DNA of 64,000 nucleotides from Candidatus Falkowbacteria bacterium. GTDB taxonomy: Bacteria > Patescibacteriota > Patescibacteriia > XYB2-FULL-38-15. Below are positions 6,478 through 63,551 of the stretch, one piece after another. The translations under genes were made by a program, and so were the position numbers. Positions within the stretch are counted from its first letter, which is position 1; each line of letters starts with the position of its first letter. The notes under the pieces are model-generated. The model did no database searches. It saw only the letters and a list, made by a program, of their open reading frames with translations, and was not told the DNA's origin. The stretch is from the NCBI GenBank assembly GCA_016214745.1, contig JACRNW010000016.1, positions 591 through 64,590 on the forward strand, in the 5' to 3' direction.

Positions 6478-7896
6478 ATGTCCCTTACCCGCCAAGTGGC
6501 GCACAATATGATTTATCAAGTCGGTGGAAAAATTACTTCCACGATTTTTGGCATCCTGGCTTTAGCCATGATGACAAGATATTTGGGCCAAGACGGCTAC
6601 GGCGGCTACACAACCATTATTTCTTTTTTACAATTTTTCGGAATTTTAGTTGACTTCGGCCTGACCTTGACCACGGTGCAAATGATTTCCGAGCCAAACG
6701 CCGACACGGACAAAATCACGAGCAATATTTTCACTCTCAGATTTTTTTCGGCTTTAATTTTTTTGGGCCTCGCGCCGCTCGTCGTTCTCTTTTTCCCCTA
6801 CGGCACAACTCTAAAAATTGGCGTGGCTATTACTACTTTTTCTTTTCTCTTTGTCTCCCTAAATCAAGTTTTAATCGGCCTTTTTCAAAAAAATCTTCGC
6901 ATGGAAAAAGTGGCCATTGCGGAAAATATCGGCCGAATCGTACTCGTCGCCGGAATCGCCGCAGTTATTTTTTTAAAAGCCGGTTTGATCGCCATACTGC
7001 TGGCCGTAATTCTCGGCAGTTTTGCAAATTTTTTGATTAATTTTATTTTTTCTTTAAAATACGTCCGCATCAGATTTGTTTTTGACTGGCCAATCTGGAA
7101 AGAAATTTATCGCCGCTCCTGGCCGATTGGTCTTTCCATCGCCTTTAACCTTATATATCTGAAGGCCGACGTGATTGCCCTGTCGCTTTTTCAAAGCCAA
7201 GCCGCCGTCGGTCTTTACGGCGCTTCTTACAGAGTTTTAGATGTTTTGACAACTCTGCCCATGATGTTCGCCGGACTCATTTTGCCGGTTCTTACCGCGG
7301 CCTGGGCGGAAAAAAATCTGGAGAGATTTGAACGGCTCATCAAAAAATCTTTTGATTTTTTAATGATGGTAATTGTGCCGATAATTTTCGGAACTATGCT
7401 TTTGGGCGAACGGATTATGAGCGCCGTGGCCGGGCGTGATTTCAGTCTTTCCGGAACGATTTTAAAAATTCTAATTTTGGCGGCCGGCGCGATTTTCGTC
7501 GGGACGCTCTTCGGCCATGTTATTGTCGCCGTCAAAAAACAAAAACAGATGATTTGGGGTTACGCCTCGGTCGCTGTTCTGTCTTTGGCCGCCTACGTTA
7601 TTTTTATTCCGCGCTACACTTTTTGGGCCGCGGCCTGGATCACGGTTTTTTCTGAGGGAGCAATCGCCCTTCTGACGTTTTTTGTCGTTTGGAAAAATAC
7701 CCGCCTCATTCCTTCGGGCAAAGTTTTATGGAAATCAATTCTCGCAAGTATTCTGATGTGCGCAGTTATTTATTTTTTGATTGGCATGAATCTTTTATTT
7801 TTAATTTTTTTAGGTGCCGCCGTTTATTTTGCCGCCCTCTACTTACTTCGCGGATTTAATAAAGAAACTGTTATGGAAATTATCAAATTAAAATAA
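6478..7896 (+). CDS. Polysaccharide biosynthesis protein / Wzx-type flippase (MOP superfamily)
   Basis: 472 aa, ~12-14 TM helices, typical polysaccharide-biosynthesis-protein architecture. Confidence 0.7.
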   Translation: MSLTRQVAHNMIYQVGGKITSTIFGILALAMMTRYLGQDGYGGYTTIISFLQFFGILVDFGLTLTTVQMISEPNADTDKITSNIFTLRFFSALIFLGLAPLVVLFFPYGTTLKIGVAITTFSFLFVSLNQVLIGLFQKNLRMEKVAIAENIGRIVLVAGIAAVIFLKAGLIAILLAVILGSFANFLINFIFSLKYVRIRFVFDWPIWKEIYRRSWPIGLSIAFNLIYLKADVIALSLFQSQAAVGLYGASYRVLDVLTTLPMMFAGLILPVLTAAWAEKNLERFERLIKKSFDFLMMVIVPIIFGTMLLGERIMSAVAGRDFSLSGTILKILILAAGAIFVGTLFGHVIVAVKKQKQMIWGYASVAVLSLAAYVIFIPRYTFWAAAWITVFSEGAIALLTFFVVWKNTRLIPSGKVLWKSILASILMCAVIYFLIGMNLLFLIFLGAAVYFAALYLLRGFNKETVMEIIKLK

Positions 7897-7898
7897 TT

Positions 7899-9209
7899 AT
7901 GGTTTGGACGATTTTGTTAATTTTATTTTTTTTCGCTTACGCCTACTTCGCTTGGCGTAATATTTTTTGGGCAACCGCGACGATTTGCGCTCTTCTGCCG
8001 GCGTATCTAATCAGGTTCTCGCTCGGCCCAATGCCCATGACCGCCCTTGAGATGATGATTCTAATTCTTTTTGCGGTTTGGTTTATAAAATTAAAATTCC
8101 GAAAAGAAAAGTTAAACAATCCAATAAAAATTTTAGAAAATAAAAAATGGACTTGGCCAATTCTTGCCTGGCTTTCCTTCGCCATAATTTCAATGCTTAT
8201 TTCGCCGGATTTACGCGCCGCCGCAGGCATCTTCAAAGCTTATTTTTTTGAACCGCTTCTTTTTCTGCTCGTTCTTTTGAGTGTGGTTAAAACAAAAAAG
8301 GATTTGGAAATATTTTTTTATGCTTTGGGTTTTTCCGCGCTCTATATTTCCGCTTTTGCCATTTACCAAAAATTCACCGGTTTCGCCATCCCAAACCCAA
8401 TCTGGCAGGCGGCAGAAACCCGCCGCGTTACGAGTTTTTACGGCTATCCAAACGCGATCGGACTTTATCTCGCGCCGATTGTCATACTTTACGCAGGACT
8501 GTTAATTTCTAATATCCAATATCTAATATCAAAAATCAAAAAAGTAACCGCCAGATATTGGCTATTGGATATTGGCTATTTGCTGTTGGTTATTGCCGCT
8601 TCAACGGCATCCATCATCTTCGCCCGTTCCGAGGGCGCTTATGTCGGAATCTTGGCCGGTTTATTTTTTCTGGGGCTTATGACAAAAAAATTGCGTTGGC
8701 CGACGGTTGCGCTCGCGCTTATTTTTGTCACAGTCATCGCGCTCGTGCCGCAATTTAGACATTACGCCGTGGAACAGATAACTTTTAAAAATGATTCCGG
8801 CAAAGTCCGTCAAATTATGTGGCGCGAAACTTGGCAAATGCTCCGCGACCGGCTTTTTTCCGGAGCGGGATCAGCCGGCTATCAGGAAACTTTTGCACCA
8901 TATCACAAAGCCAAATACATTGAAATTTATCTTTATCCCCATAATTTATTTTTAAATTTTTGGACTGAAATGGGTTTGGGCGGTTTGATTGTTTTTTTAC
9001 TTATTACTATAAAATTTTTCAAAGACACCATAAAAAAATTTCTCGCCACTCGCCAGCCGTTATTTATTACTCTCTCTGCTGTCATGATTACAATTCTTGT
9101 CCATGGTCTGGTAGATGTCCCGTATTTTAAAAATGATTTGGCAATTTTATTTTGGCTTATTATTGGCCTATCTCTTTTTGAATTAAAAAAAATACCAAAA
9201 AATATCTAA
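7899..9209 (+). CDS. O-antigen ligase/polymerase-like (Wzy_C) membrane protein
   Basis: Polytopic membrane protein with YPHNLFLNFWTEMGLGGLIVF (Wzy_C-like motif). 3 nt after the flippase gene. Confidence 0.7.
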   Translation: MVWTILLILFFFAYAYFAWRNIFWATATICALLPAYLIRFSLGPMPMTALEMMILILFAVWFIKLKFRKEKLNNPIKILENKKWTWPILAWLSFAIISMLISPDLRAAAGIFKAYFFEPLLFLLVLLSVVKTKKDLEIFFYALGFSALYISAFAIYQKFTGFAIPNPIWQAAETRRVTSFYGYPNAIGLYLAPIVILYAGLLISNIQYLISKIKKVTARYWLLDIGYLLLVIAASTASIIFARSEGAYVGILAGLFFLGLMTKKLRWPTVALALIFVTVIALVPQFRHYAVEQITFKNDSGKVRQIMWRETWQMLRDRLFSGAGSAGYQETFAPYHKAKYIEIYLYPHNLFLNFWTEMGLGGLIVFLLITIKFFKDTIKKFLATRQPLFITLSAVMITILVHGLVDVPYFKNDLAILFWLIIGLSLFELKKIPKNI

Positions 9210-10559: not shown

Positions 10560-10646
10560 GGAGGAGTGGCCGAGCGGTTGAAGGCGCGGGTCTCGAAAAC
10601 CCGTATACTGGAAACAGTATCGTGAGTTCGAATCTCACCTCCTCCG
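10560..10646 (+). tRNA. tRNA-Ser (anticodon CGA), class II with long variable arm; CCA not encoded
   Basis: Hand-folded cloverleaf. Acceptor GGAGGAG/CTCCTCC. Anticodon loop CTCGAAA (CGA). Long variable arm GTATACTGGAAACAGTATC. T-arm GTGAG TTCGAAT CTCAC. Discriminator G. Confidence 0.85.
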
Positions 10647-17875: not shown

Positions 17876-18328
17876 ATGTTTTTAAAACACAAAAAATTGA
17901 TTTTAATTATCGTCGTGGGTCTTGGGTTAGCCGTTGCTCTGCCGACTCTCGCTTCCTGGCCGGCCACGCCGCTCCTCCCTCCCTGCACTTCAAGCGGCGA
18001 TTGTGGTTTTAATGATTTTATTTTGCTCGGCATCAATTTAACTAAAATGATTTTGGGCCTGGTCGGGTCGCTTACTCTGCTTTTCTTTATTTACGGCGGC
18101 GTAATGTTTTTGCTCGCCGGCGGAAAATCGGAAATGATTGATAAAGGGAAAAAAATTATTACGAACGCCGTGATCGGCGTAGCCATAGTGCTCGGCGCCT
18201 GGATAATCGTGAACTTTGCCATTGCGGCTTTGACCGGCACGCCGGTTAGCAATGTTAAAATTTTTGGTACGGAAGATTGGTGGAAAACTCCCGGAGAGGA
18301 AACAACTAATACCAATAGCGGAACTTAA
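17876..18328 (+). CDS. VirB2/TrbC-like (T4SS-pilin-like) small membrane protein, paralog 1
   Basis: Signal peptide, then two hydrophobic helices separated by a short polar loop (YGGVMFLLAGGKSEMIDKGKKIITNAVIGV...). Shares the core with the eight downstream paralogs. Confidence 0.6.
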   Translation: MFLKHKKLILIIVVGLGLAVALPTLASWPATPLLPPCTSSGDCGFNDFILLGINLTKMILGLVGSLTLLFFIYGGVMFLLAGGKSEMIDKGKKIITNAVIGVAIVLGAWIIVNFAIAALTGTPVSNVKIFGTEDWWKTPGEETTNTNSGT

Positions 18329-18338
18329 AAAAATAAAT

Positions 18339-18965
18339 ATGAAACTCTCTAAATTCTTATTCTTTGTCATAATATTTTTTTCCGCCTTTGCGCTTTTGAC
18401 GCCGAGTGCGCTAGCAGTGCGAACCTGCACTTCTAGCACTGGCTGCGCGCCCGGTGAAAACTGTTCTGAAATTTATGGTGGAGATCAATGCGTTAATACT
18501 TCAACTGAAACAATCTACTATATAACCGGCCGCTGCAGCGGTGGAGTCGGCTCCATCGCTTGCCCTGCTGGTTTCACCTGCCAATCAATTACCCGAGGCA
18601 GATATTGTATTACAAACGAAGCGGGAATGGCCGCAACTTCATGCCCCGAGGGACAAGAACTAGTGAACGGGAGTTGCCAAATCAAAAGTGCTGCTACCAC
18701 CAGTCCGGTTGAATTCACCTCGCCCCTCGGCATGGTTTCACCCACTCAAATTCTTGGTCGGGTTATTAAAGCTGTTCTCGGTATTCTCGGCGCCATTGCC
18801 CTTTTTATGTTTGTTTGGGGCGGCCAAGGATGGATGATGTCGGGTGGCAATCCAGAAAAAATAAAAGCCGCGCGCGCGACTCTTATTTGGGCCGTCATCG
18901 GCATGGTCGTAATATTTTTAAGTTACGCCGCGGTTGATTTTATTCTCTCAGCTTTTGGAGCTTAG
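18339..18965 (+). CDS. VirB2/TrbC-like pilin paralog 2, with an N-terminal Cys-rich extracellular module
   Basis: Start moved to MKLSKFLFF. Signal peptide. Cys-rich region (CTSSTGCAPGENC...CPAGFTCQ...CPEGQELVNGSCQ). C-terminal pilin-like core FVWGGQGWMMSGGNPEKIKAARATLIWAVIGMVVIF. Confidence 0.6.
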   Translation: MKLSKFLFFVIIFFSAFALLTPSALAVRTCTSSTGCAPGENCSEIYGGDQCVNTSTETIYYITGRCSGGVGSIACPAGFTCQSITRGRYCITNEAGMAATSCPEGQELVNGSCQIKSAATTSPVEFTSPLGMVSPTQILGRVIKAVLGILGAIALFMFVWGGQGWMMSGGNPEKIKAARATLIWAVIGMVVIFLSYAAVDFILSAFGA

Positions 18966-18968
18966 AAC

Positions 18969-19541
18969 ATGAAAAAATATTTCAAACTAAAAATACCGTC
19001 TCTTATTCTCAACCCGACGATTTTATTTTTTATTTTTTTATCGGCTGGAATTCTGCTCGGGGCAACGCCCGCCCTGGGAGAATGCAATTGCTCAACCGGC
19101 GCATTTGGTTCATCCTGGACAACCACGGATCCTTGTTTCGCTGACAGCGATTGCTCTCTGCCGTGCGAACGGACTGTTCCGGGAGGCGTAACGCCTACGA
19201 GTCTATCTTATACGTGCGCTACGACAAGCGTCCCGAGCGGCGGGACAACAACTCCTGGCGCGCCGGAAAAAATTAAATTGGAAAATCCCCTTGGCGGCGG
19301 GACTGGCGTAACCTCTGTCCCACTCCTCATCGGCAATATTATCAAAACTATTTTAATGATTGTCGGCGCCCTGGCGCTCGCCATGTTTGTTTACGGCGGC
19401 TTTACTTGGCTCACCTCCGGAGGCAGCGCCGATAAAGTTAAAAAGGGCAAAGATATTTTGATTTGGGCGACTATCGGCCTCATTGTCATTTTTACGAGCT
19501 ATACTTTGGTAGACTTCTTATTAACCGCATTAGGAATTTAA
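18969..19541 (+). CDS. VirB2/TrbC-like pilin paralog 3, with Cys-rich module
   Basis: Signal peptide, CNCSTGAFGSSWTTTDPCFADSDCSLPCE module, Thr/Pro-rich linker, core MFVYGGFTWLTSGGSADKVKKGKDILIWATIGLIVIF. Confidence 0.6.
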   Translation: MKKYFKLKIPSLILNPTILFFIFLSAGILLGATPALGECNCSTGAFGSSWTTTDPCFADSDCSLPCERTVPGGVTPTSLSYTCATTSVPSGGTTTPGAPEKIKLENPLGGGTGVTSVPLLIGNIIKTILMIVGALALAMFVYGGFTWLTSGGSADKVKKGKDILIWATIGLIVIFTSYTLVDFLLTALGI

Positions 19542-19542
19542 A

Positions 19543-20223
19543 ATGTTTATCACGCGACAAAAATTTTTTACTTTAATACCCCTCTTCTCTTTTTTATTTT
19601 TCTTTTTACCTATTTTCCCGGTTGATGCCCAGGAAGAATGCCGCTGCTATGTTTATGGCAGTTTTGACCGCGAAGAAGCAACCTGCAACAGCCGGTGCCC
19701 GAGCATTTGCGGAGCAATAAGCGACCGATCCTTGGAAAATTGGAATATTGATCTTCGTCTTTCTCCCGAATGTCGCGCCGCAGACGGCCAATGGCAATGC
19801 AACTGCTATATTTCCCAAGCTTTGCGCGGCGTTTCCACTGAAGAAGCATGCAGTGATATTTGTTACGCCCTAACCGTGCCTAACGCAGAGCTAACCGGTG
19901 AATTTAGAGATTTTGGTGTGGCGGAAGAAGCAGCCCCGAAAACTGAAGAAGAAGAATTTCCAACCTACAAAATTAAATCTCCGATCGGCGAAGTGACCGG
20001 ACCGGAACTTATTGGCCGAATTATTAAAACAGTCCTTGGCGTTGTTGGCGCCCTGGCTTTGGCCATGTTTGTTTACGGCGGCTTTACTTGGTTGACCTCG
20101 GCCGGCAGTGCTGATAAAATAAAGAAAGGCAAAGATATCTTAATTTGGGCGACTATCGGCCTTATTGTCATTTTTACCAGTTATACTTTAGTGGATTTTG
20201 TTTTACGAGCCTTTGGATTATAA
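19543..20223 (+). CDS. VirB2/TrbC-like pilin paralog 4, with a different Cys-rich module
   Basis: Signal peptide, ECRCYVYG...CNSRCPSICG...CNCY module, acidic linker. The C-terminal core is ~85% identical at DNA level to paralog 3. Confidence 0.6.
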   Translation: MFITRQKFFTLIPLFSFLFFFLPIFPVDAQEECRCYVYGSFDREEATCNSRCPSICGAISDRSLENWNIDLRLSPECRAADGQWQCNCYISQALRGVSTEEACSDICYALTVPNAELTGEFRDFGVAEEAAPKTEEEEFPTYKIKSPIGEVTGPELIGRIIKTVLGVVGALALAMFVYGGFTWLTSAGSADKIKKGKDILIWATIGLIVIFTSYTLVDFVLRAFGL

Positions 20224-20301
20224 ACAGTTACACAAATTATCTAAAAAACTTAAACAAATTAATTGTTAACTGTTAAATGTTAGCAGTTATCCCGAAAGGG
20301 G

Positions 20302-20676
20302 GTGAAGAAAATGAAAAAACTATTTATCTGTTTGACGGTGCTCGCTCTTTTGACTCCAGTTTTGGTCTCCGCGCAAACGAATGACATCTTGGGCCTGAAT
20401 GTCATTAACAATGCCAATATCGGCTTGCAAGCTTCAGATCCGAGAGCTGTTGCCGCGAAAATCATTAACGTGGCGTTGGGCTTCTTGGGCATCATCGCCG
20501 TGGTCATTGTTCTTTACGGAGGCTTTGTGTGGATGACGGCGGCTGGCAACGAGGAAAGAATTTCCAAAGCGAAACAAATCCTTACTGCCGGTATCATCGG
20601 CTTAGTCATTATCGTAATGGCTTGGGCAATCGCCTCTTATGTTGTAAGAACTTTGATGAACGTTACAAACACCTAA
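20302..20676 (+). CDS. VirB2/TrbC-like pilin paralog 5
   Basis: Signal peptide plus core LYGGFVWMTAAGNEERISKAKQILTAGIIGLVII. RBS GAAAGGGGGTGAAGAAAATG. Confidence 0.6.
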   Translation: MKKMKKLFICLTVLALLTPVLVSAQTNDILGLNVINNANIGLQASDPRAVAAKIINVALGFLGIIAVVIVLYGGFVWMTAAGNEERISKAKQILTAGIIGLVIIVMAWAIASYVVRTLMNVTNT

Positions 20677-20682
20677 TTTAAA

Positions 20683-20715
20683 AATGGGGTGGGGGTAAAT
20701 CCCCACCCCATTCTC
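20683..20715. terminator. GC hairpin (GGGGTGGGGG taaat CCCCACCCC), terminator-like
   Basis: Perfect 9-10 bp stem after paralog 5. A-run upstream and T-rich downstream. Confidence 0.5.
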
Positions 20716-20863
20716 GATTGTCTTGTATGTCCCGTTAGAAGTTCTTGACAGAAAAATTTTATCAAAAATTTTTCTTTATAAAACTAACGGCACATAAAAT
20801 TTAAACGACACCACTGTTATAAAGATACAACAATAAATTAAATCGACAAACTTCTAACGGGAT

Positions 20864-21295
20864 ATGTTTTTAAAAATAGAAAAAATAAAAATTTTTAAAT
20901 TTATCTGCGTCGCAGCGACTCTTTTACTTTTATTCGGCGCGAACCTTGCTCTTGCTCAACCCACTGACGGCGAAAAAACTGATAGCGATGCAAGTGGCGT
21001 CCGCTCTGGCCTAGAAAATACGGCTGAAGCCGCCGGAATTCCCAAAACGGGCGGCGAAGAAGCCATCCCAAATCTCATCGGCAGCATTATTATGGGCGCG
21101 CTCGGTTCTGTCGGCATCATTTTTTTAATTTTAATGATCATTGGCGGCGTAATGTGGATGACTGCTTCCGGCAATGAAGAACGAGTCAACAAAGCAAAGG
21201 GTTTGATTACTAACGCGGTGATCGGCATGATTATTGTTTTCTCCGCTTACGCCATTACTTATTTTGTGACTGAAACTTTACTTGGAACCAGATGA
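20864..21295 (+). CDS. VirB2/TrbC-like pilin paralog 6
   Basis: Core IIGGVMWMTASGNEERVNKAKGLITNAVIGMIIVFSAYAITYFV. Confidence 0.6.
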   Translation: MFLKIEKIKIFKFICVAATLLLLFGANLALAQPTDGEKTDSDASGVRSGLENTAEAAGIPKTGGEEAIPNLIGSIIMGALGSVGIIFLILMIIGGVMWMTASGNEERVNKAKGLITNAVIGMIIVFSAYAITYFVTETLLGTR

Positions 21296-21795
21296 AAAAC
21301 TTAAAAAAAATTCTAATCATTTTTTTCCCTTTAGCTGTTTTAGCCGCCGTATTTTTCTTTTTTAAAGACACCGCTTTGGCACAATCAATTTTCGGCGGGC
21401 TTGAAGGCGCGCGAAAAACAGCCGGATTTTCCGAAGATACAAATATTTATTCCAGAATTGGAATGTTAATTTCTGTTTTTCTCGGTTTTGTCGGAGTGAT
21501 TTTTTTGGGCCTTACTCTTTACGGCGGATTTATTTGGATGATTGCTCGCGGCAATGAACAGGAAATTGAAAAAGCAAAAAAATTAATTGAAGCGGCCGTA
21601 ATCGGCCTCGCCATAGTCTTCGCCGCTTATGCCATTACTTATTTTGTGACCTCGCGTTTGCTTTCCACGAGCAGCGGGAGCGGCGCGGCGACCTGCGCTG
21701 AAGGCACAACTCTTTGCACCTGCCCCGGAGCCGGCTCCGCGTGTCTTGACCCCGGCGAATCTTGCGAAGAATTATGCGGGTCGGTTACTCCTTAA
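21292..21795 (+). CDS. VirB2/TrbC-like pilin paralog 7, with a C-terminal Cys-rich tail
   Basis: Core LYGGFIWMIARGNEQEIEKAKKLIEAAVIGLAIVFAAYAITYFV plus tail ATCAEGTTLCTCPGAGSACLDPGESCEELCGSV. Overlaps paralog 6 by 4 nt. Confidence 0.6.
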   Translation: MKNLKKILIIFFPLAVLAAVFFFFKDTALAQSIFGGLEGARKTAGFSEDTNIYSRIGMLISVFLGFVGVIFLGLTLYGGFIWMIARGNEQEIEKAKKLIEAAVIGLAIVFAAYAITYFVTSRLLSTSSGSGAATCAEGTTLCTCPGAGSACLDPGESCEELCGSVTP

Positions 21796-21819
21796 TACTT
21801 TAAATTAATTAAATATTTT

Positions 21820-22245
21820 ATGGCTAAATTTAAAAAAATATTTATTGCTTGTTGCTTTGTCTTGGCACTTTTCACTCTTGCGGTGCCCCTTCTTTCTTCT
21901 GCCGTGGCTGAACCCGGAGACGCTTTAAACAGATTGAAAGAAGTTGGTGGTTCGGCCTATGGCGTCGGCGAGGAAGAACCGAGAGATGTCACGGAAATTG
22001 TCGGCGGAATAATCAAAACCGCTCTCTCGATTATGGGCATAGTTGCTGCAATTTTAATCATTTATGCCGGTTATGTTTGGATGACGGCCCGCGGCAAAGA
22101 AGAACGTGTCACCAAAGCCAAAGAAACTTTGGAGGCGGCAATTATCGGTTTAATTATTATCATGGCGGCCTACGCCTTTACCTACTTTGTAGTGGATCGT
22201 ATAATGCAAGCTTCAAGTACTCCAACTACAACACCAACACCTTAA
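21820..22245 (+). CDS. VirB2/TrbC-like pilin paralog 8
   Basis: Core IYAGYVWMTARGKEERVTKAKETLEAAIIGLIIIMAAYAFTYFV. Thr/Pro tail. Confidence 0.6.
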   Translation: MAKFKKIFIACCFVLALFTLAVPLLSSAVAEPGDALNRLKEVGGSAYGVGEEEPRDVTEIVGGIIKTALSIMGIVAAILIIYAGYVWMTARGKEERVTKAKETLEAAIIGLIIIMAAYAFTYFVVDRIMQASSTPTTTPTP

Positions 22246-22254
22246 ATTAAAAAT

Positions 22255-22638
22255 ATGAAATTTATCTCTAAAAAATTATTTATTTCCTCATTCCTGATTT
22301 TAATCCTCCTCTCCGCCCTGCCGGCCTTTGCTCAGATAGAAGGATTAGAAAACTTCGGCAAAGCAGCCGACTACGTTGCTGATACAAGTGCTACTCCCAA
22401 GGAGCCGGCAGAAATCGTCGGAGGGCTTATCAGTACCGTTCTCAGTGTTTTGGGTGTTATTGCCGTTGTTTTAATTATCTATGCCGGTTTTATTTGGATG
22501 ACTGCGGCGGGCAACACGGAAAAAATTGATAAGGCAAAAAAAATTCTCGGAAATGCCGTGATTGGATTAATTATTATTCTAATGGCATACAGCATCACTT
22601 ATTTTGTCACGAGATCTTTATTGAACGCCACAAGATAA
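22255..22638 (+). CDS. VirB2/TrbC-like pilin paralog 9
   Basis: Core IYAGFIWMTAAGNTEKIDKAKKILGNAVIGLIIILMAYSITYFV. Confidence 0.6.
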   Translation: MKFISKKLFISSFLILILLSALPAFAQIEGLENFGKAADYVADTSATPKEPAEIVGGLISTVLSVLGVIAVVLIIYAGFIWMTAAGNTEKIDKAKKILGNAVIGLIIILMAYSITYFVTRSLLNATR

Positions 22639-23762: not shown

Positions 23763-23873
23763 GAGCTTGAAAAACTTTATAATTAGCCAAAATTTTAACT
23801 TCTGCCCGGCCAGATTTTTCCCTTTTCCACAACTTTTTGTGGATAAATTGTTTATAACCGCATAAAATTCACT

Positions 23874-23907
23874 TGACAAGCCTAAAATACCCTGCTAAAT
23901 TAAAGGT
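23874..23907 (+). promoter_or_regulatory. Candidate promoter (TTGACA-17-TAAATT) for rpoB with a ~330-nt structured leader
   Basis: Hexamers read directly. The leader contains a 56-nt imperfect palindrome (23930-23986). Confidence 0.4.
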
Positions 23908-31610: not shown

Positions 31611-32342
31611 ATGTCCAGACATTCAAAGTGGTCAAAAATAAAACATCAAAAGGGCGCCGCAGACGTAAAAAGGAGCGCCCTTTTTACGCGCCTTTCCAAA
31701 AACATTACGCTAGCCGTACGCGAAGGCGGAAGTGGCGATCCAAAAATGAATTTCAAATTGCGGCTTGCTATTGATCAGGCGAAAGCAGTTAATCTTCCAA
31801 AAGACACTGTTGACCGGGCGATTCAAAAGGGAATTGGCGCCGGGGAAGAAGGGCAAATTGAACGCGTCCAATACGAAGGATTTTTGCCGGGCGGCGCGGC
31901 GATTATCATTGAATCATTAACCGACAACCGAAACCGGACAAGCGGCGTCGTGAAAAATCTCCTCGGTAAACACGGCGGCAATATGGGTTTACCAAACTCC
32001 GTGGCCTGGATGTTTTTGCGAAAAGGGGTGGTCCGGATTTCCAATTACAAAAACTCTGTCAAAAATTTTGACGAATTCCAGTTGAAGATGATTGACTTTG
32101 GCGCCGACGACATCCAACCCGAAGAAGAAGATTTGGTGATTTATACTGCGCCGGAAAATCTGGAAAAATTGCGCGAAGGATTGGAAAAAGAACAAATCAC
32201 TCCCGAAGAAATAGAGATTGAATTTGTGGCAAAAGAAAAAATTAGCGTCACGGATCTGGCGCAAAAAGAAAAAATTGAAAATCTGCTGAACGAACTGGAT
32301 GAAAATGAAGACGTTGATAATTACTATACAAATCTTGAATAA
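31611..32342 (+). CDS. yebC: YebC/PmpR family DNA-binding transcriptional regulator
   Basis: MSRHSKWSKIKHQKGAADVKRSALFTRLSKNITLA matches the YebC N-terminus. Confidence 0.9.
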   Translation: MSRHSKWSKIKHQKGAADVKRSALFTRLSKNITLAVREGGSGDPKMNFKLRLAIDQAKAVNLPKDTVDRAIQKGIGAGEEGQIERVQYEGFLPGGAAIIIESLTDNRNRTSGVVKNLLGKHGGNMGLPNSVAWMFLRKGVVRISNYKNSVKNFDEFQLKMIDFGADDIQPEEEDLVIYTAPENLEKLREGLEKEQITPEEIEIEFVAKEKISVTDLAQKEKIENLLNELDENEDVDNYYTNLE

Positions 32343-32360
32343 AATTAAATTCGAAAAAAT

Positions 32361-32392
32361 AAAAATTCCACCGCGTTAGGTGGAATTTTTTG
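32361..32392. terminator. Bidirectional intrinsic terminator (AAATTCCACC gcgtta GGTGGAATTTTTT)
   Basis: 10-bp stem flanked by A-run and T-run. Confidence 0.8.
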
Positions 32393-32394
32393 TA

Positions 32395-32637
32395 TTGCCT
32401 TTTTTATTTAAAAGAAATGAGTGCAGAATCCATTTGAAACTGTAGCCTATGGCGATGTGAACCGCCGGTCGGCAGGCAGTGTTTCGACTTTGATGGGTGG
32501 TATTTCAAGGATGACTCCATCGTGCCCAGGAGCACGACTTCATGGTCTACCACCTATCCTGCGCATCAAAGTCTATCTCAGGACCAGCGCCGGGACTTTA
32601 ACCCGGAGCACCTTTACGGTGCGCTGTTTCTGCACTC
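32395..32637 (-). ncRNA. Candidate structured ncRNA of unknown class (~240 nt). The 5' end at 32637 pairs with 32419-32428 through a perfect 10-bp terminal helix
   Basis: GC-rich (~55%) non-coding block between two convergent genes. Minus-strand TTGACA-17-TTAACT promoter ends 6 nt before GAGUGCAGAA. Perfect long-range helix GAGTGCAGAA/TTCTGCACTC. Several internal hairpins. Terminated by the 32361-32392 hairpin. The class could not be assigned by eye. Confidence 0.4.
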
Positions 32638-32689
32638 GTGGCAAGTTAACCAATCTTATCTGTTTATGTCAAGTCTACAAAATAATAAA

Positions 32690-32722
32690 AAGACAGGCCT
32701 TTGTGAAGGGCTGCCTTTTTGT
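32690..32722. terminator. GC hairpin with GUGA tetraloop flanked by A/T runs (terminator for the 64-aa gene)
   Basis: CAGGCCTTT gtga AAGGGCTGCC TTTTT. Confidence 0.5.
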
Positions 32723-32735
32723 ATCGTGGCAATTT

Positions 32736-32930
32736 CTATCCCAAAATTTCCTGCACCCGACCGACTTGTCCGTCTTCTAATCGAACTTTTATTCCGCGCG
32801 GATGAATTGAGGAACTCGTCAAAATATCTTTAACGATTCCTTCGGTCAATTCGCCCGTTGGTTGATCTTTTTTTAAAACAACTTTTACTCGCAGGCCTGG
32901 CTTAATGTCGTCTCGATTGGTCGGGTCCAT
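32736..32930 (-). CDS. YwbE/DUF2196 family small protein
   Basis: 64 aa. KPGLRVKVVLKKDQPTGELTEGIVKDILT...GIKVRLEDGQVGRVQEI matches the YwbE family. Confidence 0.65.
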   Translation of the reverse strand: MDPTNRDDIKPGLRVKVVLKKDQPTGELTEGIVKDILTSSSIHPRGIKVRLEDGQVGRVQEILG

Positions 32931-60226: not shown

Positions 60227-60337
60227 GGGTTGACAAATTCTTTAAAAAATGTTATTGTATTAATATAAATAGCTCTTCTGTGCATGGTCGAACAGCAAAG
60301 CAGCTATTTTCTGAACATTTAACAAGAAAAGAAACGT

Positions 60338-61438: not shown

Positions 61439-61639
61439 CCCCTCCCTTGATGGGAGGGGTAAGGGGAGGGTGAAAAAAATCCCTCGGCGTTTCCGCGCCA
61501 CTCCCTTTTAAAAAGGGAGATAAATTTCACCCCTCACCCCCGCCCGCCACGCAAGCCAGCTTGCTGGCGTTGCGGGCAGGCCAACCCTCTCCCTCAAGGG
61601 GAGAGGGATTTTAATATTTTCTCCCTTTCGAAAAGGGAG
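61439..61639. repeat. Cluster of five GC-rich palindromic hairpins (GGGAGAGGG / CCCTCTCCC family) between trmD and the DGR target
   Basis: CCCCTCCCttgatGGGAGGGG, CTCCCTTttaaaAAGGGAG, CCCGCC..GCCAGCttGCTGGC..GCGGG, CCCTCTCCCtcaagGGGAGAGGG, CTCCCTTtcgaaAAGGGAG. Related copies at 45572-45660 and 46037-46057. Confidence 0.6.
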
Positions 61640-61659
61640 AGTTAGAGAGGGATTTATCC

Positions 61660-61688
61660 TTGACTTTTTATCTAAATCATGTTAATAT
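61660..61688 (+). promoter_or_regulatory. Candidate promoter (TTGACT-17-TAATAT) for the DGR target gene
   Basis: Hexamers read directly, ~90 nt upstream of the ATG. Confidence 0.45.
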
Positions 61689-61776
61689 AAAGCGTTGTCC
61701 TCATGTTGAGGAAACCCTGGGCCACGGGCAGTGGCAAAATGCTTTTCGGGCTTTCAGCCTGGAAGGAGATTCGGTC

Positions 61777-62655
61777 ATGGCAAAGTATCCGAACTGGACC
61801 GGAAGGATCGAGGCGCTTCTGAACGTGCTCGGCGGCGAGGAGGTCGTCGACGCGCTCATCGCCGGCACCAAGGTCGCGGAGATCAAGGATGCCGTGCGGA
61901 TGCTTTTCGACCGCCACGGTCGGTGCATCCCGCCGCAGGGCATGAAGGCCGAGGTGGTGGACGCCAATCGCGACTTCCACCTCACCCAGCCGGAAGTGAA
62001 CTTCGCCGAACGCTTGGCGCGCCTGACGCGCTTCCTCACGAACGGCGAGACGCCGATCTCGGCCGAGGAGTTCGAGCGGCGCACGGCGGAAATCGTGCGG
62101 CGGGTCAAGGGCGACAAGCTCTTGGTCAACCTCTTCTGCGGCGTGTTTCTGCCGATCGTTCTGCCGCAGATCGCGATCGGCGACTACGGCAAGACGCTCG
62201 ACCTGACGCTCCTCCCGGCCGTGGGCCGCGCCTACGAGGCCGAGTTCGCGGGCCGGAAGTTCTACAACCACCGGCAGGGAACGCTCGCGGGCGAGGTCAC
62301 GGTGGTGAAGGGCAGCCGGCACGAGGCGCTCGTCGCGGCAATCGCGGCGGGTCCGGTCGTGGCGCTGTATTTCCCGACCGCCCTGCAGGGGTTCTCCATC
62401 CCGGCGGACCTCGAGCAGATGGCGATGCTTCCCGACTTCGTTCTGCCCACCGGCGCTCTGGAACCGGCCGCGGCCATGGTCATGTACCCGGATGTGCTGG
62501 CTCGCGATGGCCAGACGCCCGGGCTGGACTGCGCGGCGCTGTCCTGGCGGGGCGGTTCGCTCTACTTCAAGGCCGACGGCGACAACCTCCTCTTCAACGG
62601 CGGGGGTCTGAGCGCCCGCGGCAACTACTCCGGCGGGCTCGTCGTCCTCGGGTAG
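61777..62655 (+). CDS. DGR target (variable) protein. GC-rich; the C-terminal ~36 codons form the variable repeat
   Basis: Start at MAKYPNW with RBS GGAAGGAGATTCGGTCATG. The 3' 108 nt (62545-62652) match the template repeat at 63048-63155 except at 16 adenine positions. C-terminus ...SWRGGSLYFKADGDNLLFNGGGLSARGNYSGGLVVLG. No signal peptide seen. Confidence 0.8.
   Translation: MAKYPNWTGRIEALLNVLGGEEVVDALIAGTKVAEIKDAVRMLFDRHGRCIPPQGMKAEVVDANRDFHLTQPEVNFAERLARLTRFLTNGETPISAEEFERRTAEIVRRVKGDKLLVNLFCGVFLPIVLPQIAIGDYGKTLDLTLLPAVGRAYEAEFAGRKFYNHRQGTLAGEVTVVKGSRHEALVAAIAAGPVVALYFPTALQGFSIPADLEQMAMLPDFVLPTGALEPAAAMVMYPDVLARDGQTPGLDCAALSWRGGSLYFKADGDNLLFNGGGLSARGNYSGGLVVLG
62545..62652 (+). repeat. 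DGR variable repeat (VR)
   Basis: 92/108 identical to the TR. All 16 mismatches are A in the TR versus G/C/T here (mostly G). Confidence 0.85.
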
Positions 62656-62734
62656 TGTCTGCCACTCGGATTTCGGTTCCTTGTTCCTTGGATCAAGTCC
62701 CTTGAGGATTTGGTTCTCGGACGCTTGACTTCGA

Positions 62735-62772
62735 CGGGGAACACGACTAAACATCGTGCGCCCCGTTTTTTT
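62735..62772 (+). terminator. Intrinsic terminator after the DGR target gene
   Basis: CGGGGaaCACGActaaacaTCGTGcgCCCCG followed by T7. Confidence 0.75.
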
Positions 62773-63047
62773 ATTTTCAAAAACGTGATAAAGTATAAAT
62801 TGAAAATAGGCTAATGCACTGCAGTTCATGGATTGCAGTCGCCGAAATCCTGCGTTTTTCACAATGTATCAGAGTCCGGCAGTTTACGGATTGTCGGAGC
62901 GCATACAGAAGACGCGGTAAACGATGTAGACACTGCTTACTTTTCCCTGGTGTCCAAATTGGGACCAAATAAAATTCAGGAGACGTAAATCTCGAAAAAT
63001 ATCGGGACTATTTCTCCGGTGCATCCAGATGGGGGAAAATAAATAAA

Positions 63048-63209: not shown

Positions 63210-63551
63210 TTAGAGCGTCTTAATCCAACCGCCGAACATCCGGCCAATTTCTTGGATAGTGGTCTGGAGCGTAAGATATTTTTTCTGATCAAGAATTTTT
63301 AATTCTCGCAGGACGCGGATAAAAATTTTTAGCGTTTCAAATTTGTTATTGGCTGCCAAAAGTATCGGCCGTTTCGCTTCTTTCGGAAGATAACTTGTTT
63401 CAAGAAGCAATTCCAGCACGGCAATTATATATTCTTCGCATTTCGCGCCCAAAGCGTATTTATCTTTTTTGGGAAATAATTCAAGAAAATTATAGTATGT
63501 TTTATAAAGTTCAATCGTTTTTTTCAAAATCGGCACCTCTGCCCGTTCCAA
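63210..63551 (-). CDS. avd: DGR accessory variability determinant (Avd, four-helix-bundle protein)
   Basis: FPKKDKYALGAKCEEYIIAVLELLLETSYL ... LQTTIQEIGRMFGGWIKTL closely parallels Bordetella bAvd (...QVLIAEVGRILGSWIA). Apparent TTG start. Divergent from the RT gene. Confidence 0.75.
   Translation of the reverse strand: MERAEVPILKKTIELYKTYYNFLELFPKKDKYALGAKCEEYIIAVLELLLETSYLPKEAKRPILLAANNKFETLKIFIRVLRELKILDQKKYLTLQTTIQEIGRMFGGWIKTL

Follow-up and report, generated by a model that had tools for sequence, protein, structure and literature searches.

A predicted small RNA gene with a complete L1 stalk of 23S rRNA as its central arm in a Candidatus Falkowbacteria contig, and stand-alone L1-stalk modules in viral contigs

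In the ribosome, the mobile L1 stalk of 23S rRNA ejects the tRNA from the E site, and helix 78 together with the helix 77/78 junction forms the binding site of protein uL1. This site is also imitated by RNAs outside the ribosome. In effect, the autoregulatory sites of uL1, which are found in the leader of the bacterial L11 operon and in the archaeal L1-operon mRNA, are extra-ribosomal RNAs that mimic the rRNA site of the protein. To our knowledge, RNA mimicry of rRNA is limited to such short protein-binding sites in mRNA leaders. Other small RNAs, such as 6S RNA and the CsrB-type RNAs, act by titrating their partners. With regard to tRNA, residues 2112 and 2169 of the stalk form a platform that stacks on the tRNA elbow, and the T-loop motifs have been defined in the same work (Lehmann et al. 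2013, PMC3664808). A double T-loop module also docks tRNA elbows in Stem I of the T-box, which has no equivalent of helix 78 (PMC3664808). In some CPR lineages the stalk itself is reportedly incomplete: Tsurumaki et al. 2022 (PMC9297842) describe the loss of helix 78 of the 23S rRNA ('23Gap3') from Falkowbacteria, Magasanikbacteria, Uhrbacteria, Microgenomates and others, and that of uL1 from a different subgroup of the Parcubacteria.

The DNA considered here, called the window, is a stretch of 64,000 nt from a Candidatus Falkowbacteria contig (JACRNW010000016.1). Two convergent genes identified with Pfam, yebC (31611-32342, plus strand) and a gene of the DUF2196/YwbE family (32930..32736, minus strand), flank a block at 32395..32672 that a preliminary description, made from the letters alone, had called GC-enriched and non-coding. 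Both properties hold. The RNA core discussed below has a GC content of 53.9%, compared with 44.4% in the window as a whole, and the plus-strand ORF at 32421-32780, already judged implausible in that description, shows no Pfam match in this or any of the six frames. Likewise, a six-frame pseudo-protein search of 5.8 billion proteins at E<=10, the purpose of which was to catch spurious ORFs annotated over homologous RNAs, returned no homolog of the frames of the RNA locus. A protein-coding gene was rejected on these grounds. The neighbours of the RNA locus are rpoC, yebC, the DUF2196 gene, an AAA kinase and ruvC, the last of which encodes an ordinary 158-aa resolvase; no Ro/Rsr (TROVE) gene is annotated among them. 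Ribosomal protein genes are absent from the annotated ORFs of the window, and within 22 kb of the RNA the window has no tRNA gene (Rfam, ARAGORN), its sole tRNA being at 10560-10646 (Rfam). Elsewhere in the window, nine or more small genes, all of them encoding a T4SS_pilin domain (PF18895), follow one another in tandem upstream of rpoB (17876-22638, plus strand), and a gene of the bAvd-like/23S-rRNA-IVS-protein family is found at 63210-63551 (minus strand; PF22296, 1e-17). The latter is adjoined by a block with 60.7% GC (61600-63000) in which long ORFs of the two strands overlap and which gives no Pfam or Rfam matches. A diversity-generating retroelement, or an element of another kind, is a possible identity of this block; host rRNA was ruled out as its identity, as there is no rRNA there.

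The RNA core comprises 219 nt of the minus strand (32637..32419), and the whole gene, with its terminator, about 280 nt (about 220 nt for the core). Folding of 231 nt of core sequence gives a minimum free energy (MFE) of -89 kcal/mol (z = -4.5), and core and terminator folded together give z = -7.05. The predicted fold is a four-way junction in which a helix, P1, closes three arms, P2, P3 and P4. P1 is a perfect 10-bp inverted repeat, present in the MFE and centroid folds, between GAGUGCAGAA at 32628..32637 and UUCUGCACUC at 32419..32428 (both minus strand). That is, GAGTGCAGAA pairs with TTCTGCACTC (32428..32419) over all 10 bp, as had been read by eye, the partner strand being 199 nt away. 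A linker predicted to be single-stranded, AAAUGGA (32435..32429, minus strand), precedes the 3′ strand of P1. The 5′ arm, P2 (32585..32626, minus strand), is predicted to be Y-shaped (-20.4 kcal/mol, z = -3.05, 85% of the ensemble). Its CAGCG/CGCUG stem encloses two hairpins, CACCguaaaGGUG (32621..32609) and CCGGG-UUAAAGU-CCCGG, the second of which is T-arm-like. When the 5′ and 3′ arms were compared with Rfam on their own, only weak matches at the level of chance were obtained; for P2 these are to mascRNA (16.7 bits, E=0.18) and to the Deinococcus Y RNA (10.9 bits, E=9.7), so the apparent resemblance of this arm to tRNA-like RNAs is a lead, not a finding. P4, a hairpin arm on the 3′ side (32436..32485, minus strand; -15.7 kcal/mol and z = -2.09 for the single sequence), showed no similarity to anything in Rfam, in local alignment with 23S rRNA or in blastn searches of phages and plasmids. 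The internal hairpins noted earlier, CACCguaaaGGUG, GUGCuccuggGCAC (inside 32538..32519) and GGUGGUA/UACCACC, are all present on the minus strand. GGUGGUA..UACCACC and GUGC..GCAC had been taken as separate hairpins; both belong to one L1 stalk.

This stalk is the central arm, P3 (32486..32573, minus strand). In a sensitive scan of 32300-32800, the segment 32573..32486 of the minus strand matches positions 2127-2214 of the Rfam model LSU_rRNA_bacteria with 60.3 bits (E=1.9e-17). Judged from sequence and predicted structure, the identity of the arm as a complete canonical L1 stalk, with helices 76, 77 and 78, located outside the ribosome, is secure. In an alignment of the window module with eight stand-alone modules from viral contigs (see below) and eight real 23S stalks, 28 columns are invariant. 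They include AGGAUAGGUGG, UGA-AUACCAC and, at the helix 77/78 junction, a GA; in the window this junction is intact, as are both T-loops. In the L1-stalk module, 88.6% of the cells are paired and 19 of 26 pairs covary. T-loop 1, AGGAUA (23S 2114-2119), lies at 32555..32560, and the equivalent of the platform residue G2112, at 32562, is two bases upstream of it. T-loop 2, UGAAA (23S 2167-2171), with an apical A (32505) equivalent to A2169, is at 32503..32507. Both loops are on the minus strand and follow the published motif (PMC3664808), and the invariant columns take in the loops as well as the two platform residues. According to the Rfam structure line, helix 78 is the hairpin GUCGUGCU-CCUG-GGCACGAU (32519..32538, minus strand), and helix 76 is a perfect 10-bp stem, at the base of which the edges of the module exactly fall. 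The sole departure from the Rfam consensus is GGUAG instead of GGGAG. This variant occurs naturally in Rhizobiales: when genome contigs were scanned for the L1 core with GGUAG, the matches listed were Rhizobiales 23S rRNAs only, which served as real-23S controls, with no CPR 23S and no homolog of the RNA among them.

The likeness to rRNA ends at the edges of this arm. When the RNA is aligned locally with 112 real 23S sequences, each extended by ±150 nt, the alignment goes no further than the stalk, which rules out a larger fragment of a 23S gene or pseudogene, and neither this alignment nor blastn found any similarity of the flanks to 23S helices 75 or 79 or to other rRNA regions. Similarly, in blastn against cultured phages and plasmids nothing but rRNA genes or contaminants matched, and the stalk alone was covered, the matches being annotated 23S rRNA with 74-79% identity and restricted to query positions 112-194 (83 nt). 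The preliminary description had recognised no class-defining motif, which was an error, and had counted the lack of an Rfam match among the grounds for dismissing the candidate. At gathering thresholds, Rfam on the whole window is in fact silent at this locus and reports only a tRNA elsewhere; it is the sensitive local scan that gives the LSU match. Thus, a test relying on gathering thresholds would have wrongly discarded the finding.

None of the RNA classes proposed earlier, namely a 6S-like RNA, a reduced RNase P RNA or an element-associated guide RNA, was supported by an Rfam match at E<=10 or by an element gene. For 6S RNA there was no match at E<=10 with lax filters, and the predicted fold is a four-way junction, not a rod with a central bubble. 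For RNase P RNA, families of all types were searched in the same manner without a match; the RNA does contain AAAGUCC, but within a local hairpin and not in the long-range P4 of RNase P. Guide RNAs (omega RNA, bridge RNA) and retron ncRNAs were set aside since no transposase, TnpB/IscB, IS110 recombinase or reverse transcriptase is encoded within about 3 kb on either side of the RNA. Two further candidates were rejected. There is no T-box match at E<=10 and no downstream gene that a T-box riboswitch could precede; ARAGORN finds 0 tRNA genes in 32200-32900, and the Rfam tRNA model does not match either. The location also differs from that of an autoregulatory mRNA leader of uL1, which lies in the 5′ UTR of an rplK/rplA (or archaeal L1) operon: downstream, the minus strand has only the terminator and the convergent yebC. 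What stands of the initial interpretation is a non-coding, structured unit of the minus strand with a promoter and a terminator, and not the classes to which it had been assigned.

The putative promoter consists of a -35 hexamer, TTGACA (32672..32667), and an extended -10 element, TGgTTAACT (32644..32652; hexamer TTAACT at 32649..32644), on the minus strand. The spacer of 17 nt ends in TGg, the full form being TTGACA-N14-TGn-TTAACT, and 6 nt separate the promoter from GAGTGCAGAA at 32637..32628, exactly as first described. Transcription is predicted to start near 32637-32639. The -10 hexamer is weak: TTAACT has no A at position 2, for which reason the site was not listed by a generic promoter scan. 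Nevertheless, the motif TTGACA-N14-TGnTnnnnT is found in three copies in the 64-kb window, where 0.06 are expected, and the other two (23873-23901 and 60230-60258, both on the plus strand) are intergenic, the first in front of rpoB and the second in front of a KH-domain gene. This suggests that the genome uses extended -10 promoters with a perfect -35, and the enrichment is the best available sign that the promoter is genuine. At the other end, the strong bidirectional terminator of the preliminary description was recovered by a terminator scan as an intrinsic terminator with a 12-bp stem and a U-run (32390..32361, minus strand; z = -5.5). It is common to the RNA and the convergent yebC, and is kept in relatives without the RNA. 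With a promoter of an enriched type upstream and a strong terminator downstream, the RNA is likely to be expressed. A further hairpin with a U-run (32692..32715, minus strand) lies upstream of the RNA promoter; its stem has one C-C mismatch, and its plus-strand equivalent is listed by the terminator scan. From its sequence, this hairpin would terminate the transcript of the DUF2196 gene.

The distribution of the RNA among relatives indicates that it is a recent arrival. Nine loci were fetched through YebC homologs (83-96% identical), and in all nine the RNA is absent from the spot between yebC and DUF2196, so that related loci, which had been proposed as a source of covariation, provide no set for such an analysis. 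In four relatives the gap between the two genes is only 60-100 bp. The closest ones (YebC 94-96%) hold a different cassette, a GC-rich ORF of 115 aa on the plus strand that matches phrog_5370 (function unknown) and has its own promoter-like and terminator-like signals (L001:3843-4190, L009:3129-3476 and L010:879-1226), and another relative (L011) has a FAD_binding_4 gene at the spot. Only the bidirectional terminator is common to the window and the relatives here. The yebC/DUF2196 spot is a hot spot for small cassettes, and the absence of the RNA from relatives that carry other cassettes or nothing makes it an orphan, recently acquired one. Alignment with the relatives and gene maps delimit the lineage-specific cassette to 340 nt (32395..32735, minus strand), which contain the DUF2196 terminator, the promoter and the RNA. 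Direct repeats of 9 bp, TGCCTTTTT, at 32396-32404 and 32712-32720 bracket 307 nt of the cassette. They could be a target-site duplication or chance: repeats of 9 bp in AT-rich DNA can be fortuitous, and there are no terminal inverted repeats. In addition, 12 nt are directly repeated, apart from a single mismatch, at 32636-32647 and 32724-32735 (TCGTGGCAAGTT / TCGTGGCAATTT, as read on the plus strand), with one copy just past the stop codon of DUF2196 and the other between the -10 element and the first helix of the RNA.

The metagenome, viral, six-frame protein and phage/plasmid searches brought up no homolog of the RNA as a whole. The combination of T-arm loop and L1 core (GGTTAAAGTCC-N15-45-GGATAGGTGG) gave two matches in the metagenome scan, both by chance in coding sequence, and neither this pattern nor the exact 23-mer of the 5′ arm matched in viral contigs. 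For this reason, P1 and the arms unrelated to rRNA are without covariation support, and the structure of P1, P2 and P4 is a thermodynamic prediction from one sequence.

The L1-stalk module, by itself, is found again in viruses. A scan of IMG/VR for the bare core GGATAGGTRG-N30-60-TGRRATACYAC returned 22 loci, including three to five ordinary 23S rRNAs and a few chance matches. The module occurs without 23S flanks in 16 viral contigs, representing at least eight sequence types, and these contigs carry phage-type genes. Examples are located at L017:2343-2434, L018:4713-4804 and L027:8915-9006 on the minus strand, and at L020:2480-2570, L029:5770-5861, L030:1225-1316 and L015:12237-12329 on the plus strand of the respective contigs. 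In L017, L018 and L020 the Rfam match is limited to LSU positions about 2129-2212 (55-63 bits), and the stand-alone viral modules score 63-88 bits with a dedicated model of the L1 module. Three of the approximately eight types lie within or beside tRNA arrays, on the same strand; for instance, one module is found about 40 nt upstream of a tRNA-Arg in two diverged contigs. Others are placed between a stop codon and the ribosome-binding site of the next gene, and are followed by a U-tract. In the L018 tRNA array, a sub-threshold match to YrlA, a Y RNA-like family, was observed at 7838-7956 (minus strand; 39.8 bits, E=3e-5), and a match resembling the twister-P1 ribozyme lies at L027:9734-9788 (minus strand; 44.3 bits). 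The hosts of the viral modules are probably not CPR bacteria.

When the nine stand-alone modules, that of the window included, are compared, 19 of 26 pairs have changes on both sides, and in helix 78 double changes are seen in seven of the eight pairs. The share of paired cells is 85% in these modules, whereas shuffles reach 65% and slid controls 37-52%. It follows that the isolated L1 stalk recurs and is under structural selection. No description of stand-alone L1-stalk modules was found in the literature searched, and a large survey of viral structured RNAs dropped anything overlapping Rfam models (PMC10690425).

The explanation that we prefer, although tentatively, is that the self-contained ncRNA cassette encodes a trans-acting mimic of the L1 stalk that binds uL1, tRNA elbows or both. 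A self-contained RNA gene would have arrived at the hypervariable yebC/DUF2196 spot, with the stalk grafted as the central arm into a scaffold otherwise unrelated to rRNA. The free RNA would then display the L1-stalk surface in trans, and uL1 could bind at its helix 77/78 junction. The elbows of tRNAs could dock as well, on the uL1-RNA particle so formed or on the double T-loop platform in its bare state. In this manner, the RNA might serve as a decoy or sponge for the ligands of the stalk, as 6S RNA or CsrB-type RNAs do for theirs. Helix 78 and the helix 77/78 junction are kept and covarying in all stand-alone modules. Since helix 78 is absent from T-box Stem I, its retention and covariation indicate that the uL1 site, beyond tRNA docking, seems to be selected, and we favour uL1 as the primary ligand. 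A uL1-bound RNA would resemble the complete stalk and could hold tRNA elbows, which makes the two ideas compatible. As the 23S rRNA of Falkowbacteria reportedly has no helix 78, uL1 of the host may not recognise the canonical site. Moreover, if this genome follows its lineage in that loss, the stalk was presumably not copied from the 23S rRNA of the host and would be foreign, which fits its cassette status.

An orphan insert at a hypervariable spot may also be neutral. The locus would in that case be a relic, that is, leftover foreign and probably phage-derived DNA holding an L1-stalk module, maybe transcribed and with no function in the cell. The absence of the RNA from all relatives examined, even at 96% identity of YebC, is what would be expected of such a relic, as are the other cassettes at the same spot, one of them with the phrog_5370 ORF, the flanks for which no homolog was found and the possible 9-bp flanking repeats. 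We consider it somewhat unlikely, however, given that decay should have produced mismatches, whereas every helix is intact and the 10-bp stems of P1 and of helix 76 pair perfectly; in addition, all invariant residues of the L1 stalk have been retained and a promoter of the enriched type lies at exactly the right distance. The intact T-loops, with the equivalents of G2112 and A2169, could alternatively belong to an RNA that binds tRNA in the way of T-box Stem I or the specificity domain of RNase P, and that sequesters, senses or presents it. The double T-loop would dock the elbow and there might be a second contact, for example between the AAAUGGA beside P1 and a 3′ UCCA end. The T-arm-like hairpin of the 5′ arm and the three of about eight phage module types in or beside same-strand tRNA arrays are also in line with this proposal. 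Yet helix 78 is unnecessary for docking an elbow and is nevertheless retained and covarying, no T-box or RNase P model matches, UGGA is only 4 nt long and could easily be due to chance, and no tRNA gene is found within 22 kb in the window, so that we regard a tRNA-binding RNA of this kind as rather improbable.

Two other accounts of the locus have very little in their favour. Because the 23S rRNA of Falkowbacteria reportedly is without helix 78 (PMC9297842), the RNA might be a separately encoded part of the ribosome that supplies the missing stalk, as in fragmented organellar rRNAs. An essential part should be conserved, but close relatives have no such RNA at the locus and the metagenome scan gave no homolog; furthermore, the reported loss is limited to helix 78, and the flanks show neither complementarity nor similarity to helices 75 or 79 of 23S rRNA. 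This makes a ribosomal part very improbable. The same can be said of an assembly chimera or mis-join that inserted a fragment of an rRNA read, even though the contig comes from a metagenome-assembled genome and exact-protein look-ups gave no independent assembly of the exact locus on record. The rRNA-like part amounts to no more than 88 nt, and the real 23S nearest to it among the matches listed agrees at 69 of 88 positions. Besides, the stalk is surrounded by 130 nt of unique sequence that pairs perfectly and has a promoter, and analogous stand-alone modules exist in independent viral contigs from different samples.

A wider proposal can be put forward, which is possible but doubtful at present: free-standing L1 stalks would constitute an unrecognised class of RNA, encoded by phages, often with tRNA arrays, of which one was captured by this CPR bacterium, and they would reprogram translation by hijacking or buffering the ligands of the stalk (uL1, deacylated tRNA and possibly E-site factors). 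In any case, a whole functional domain of rRNA appears to be encoded here as a free small RNA gene with its own predicted promoter, and the isolated domain recurs in phages near tRNA genes. Provided that uL1 or tRNA is their ligand, such RNAs would offer mobile elements and bacteria with reduced genomes a new route to tune or hijack translation. The locus also bears on the L1-stalk erosion reported for CPR ribosomes (PMC9297842): if the proposal is true and the 23S rRNA of the lineage has no helix 78, the small RNA would be the only canonical platform for uL1 and tRNA elbows in the cell. Finally, pipelines that discard overlaps with rRNA models (e.g., PMC10690425) or that use gathering thresholds miss such RNAs systematically.

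In comparison with known systems, the window RNA is closest to the L1 stalk of 23S rRNA itself (about 2093-2196 in E. coli), with which it shares an identical secondary structure and the invariant residues, although it stands outside any 23S gene, has unrelated flanks and carries its own promoter and terminator signals. The viral modules are similarly isolated helix 76-78 modules without 23S flanks. Their scaffolds, however, consist of a 5′ hairpin, the module and a U-tract (L017, L020, L030) or are defined by a position in a tRNA array (L018/L031, L029), and none has the P1, P2 or P4 arms of the window RNA. Bacterial Y RNA and YrlA are also small RNAs with a helix closing the 5′ and 3′ ends and a tRNA-like (T-arm) element. 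Here the likeness is weak: the only match, of 10.9 bits, is partial and covers the T-arm part of the Deinococcus Y RNA, the Rfam Y RNA scores of the window RNA are far below threshold, no match to a Ro-binding helix is found in it, and YrlA has no rRNA module. The modules of T-box Stem I and RNase P share the platform motif on which the tRNA elbow docks (PMC3664808); in contrast to the window RNA, they are without helix 78 and form part of a cis-acting riboswitch or of a ribozyme. As for the mRNA leaders bound by uL1, they are likewise extra-ribosomal mimics of the rRNA site of this protein, but minimal ones that reproduce the helix 77/78 junction in the 5′ UTR of regulated ribosomal protein genes, whereas the window RNA copies all of the stalk, with helix 76 and the two T-loops, and has no downstream gene. 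On the basis of these comparisons, we rate the finding as belonging with RNA mimicry of rRNA and with the family of double T-loop modules.
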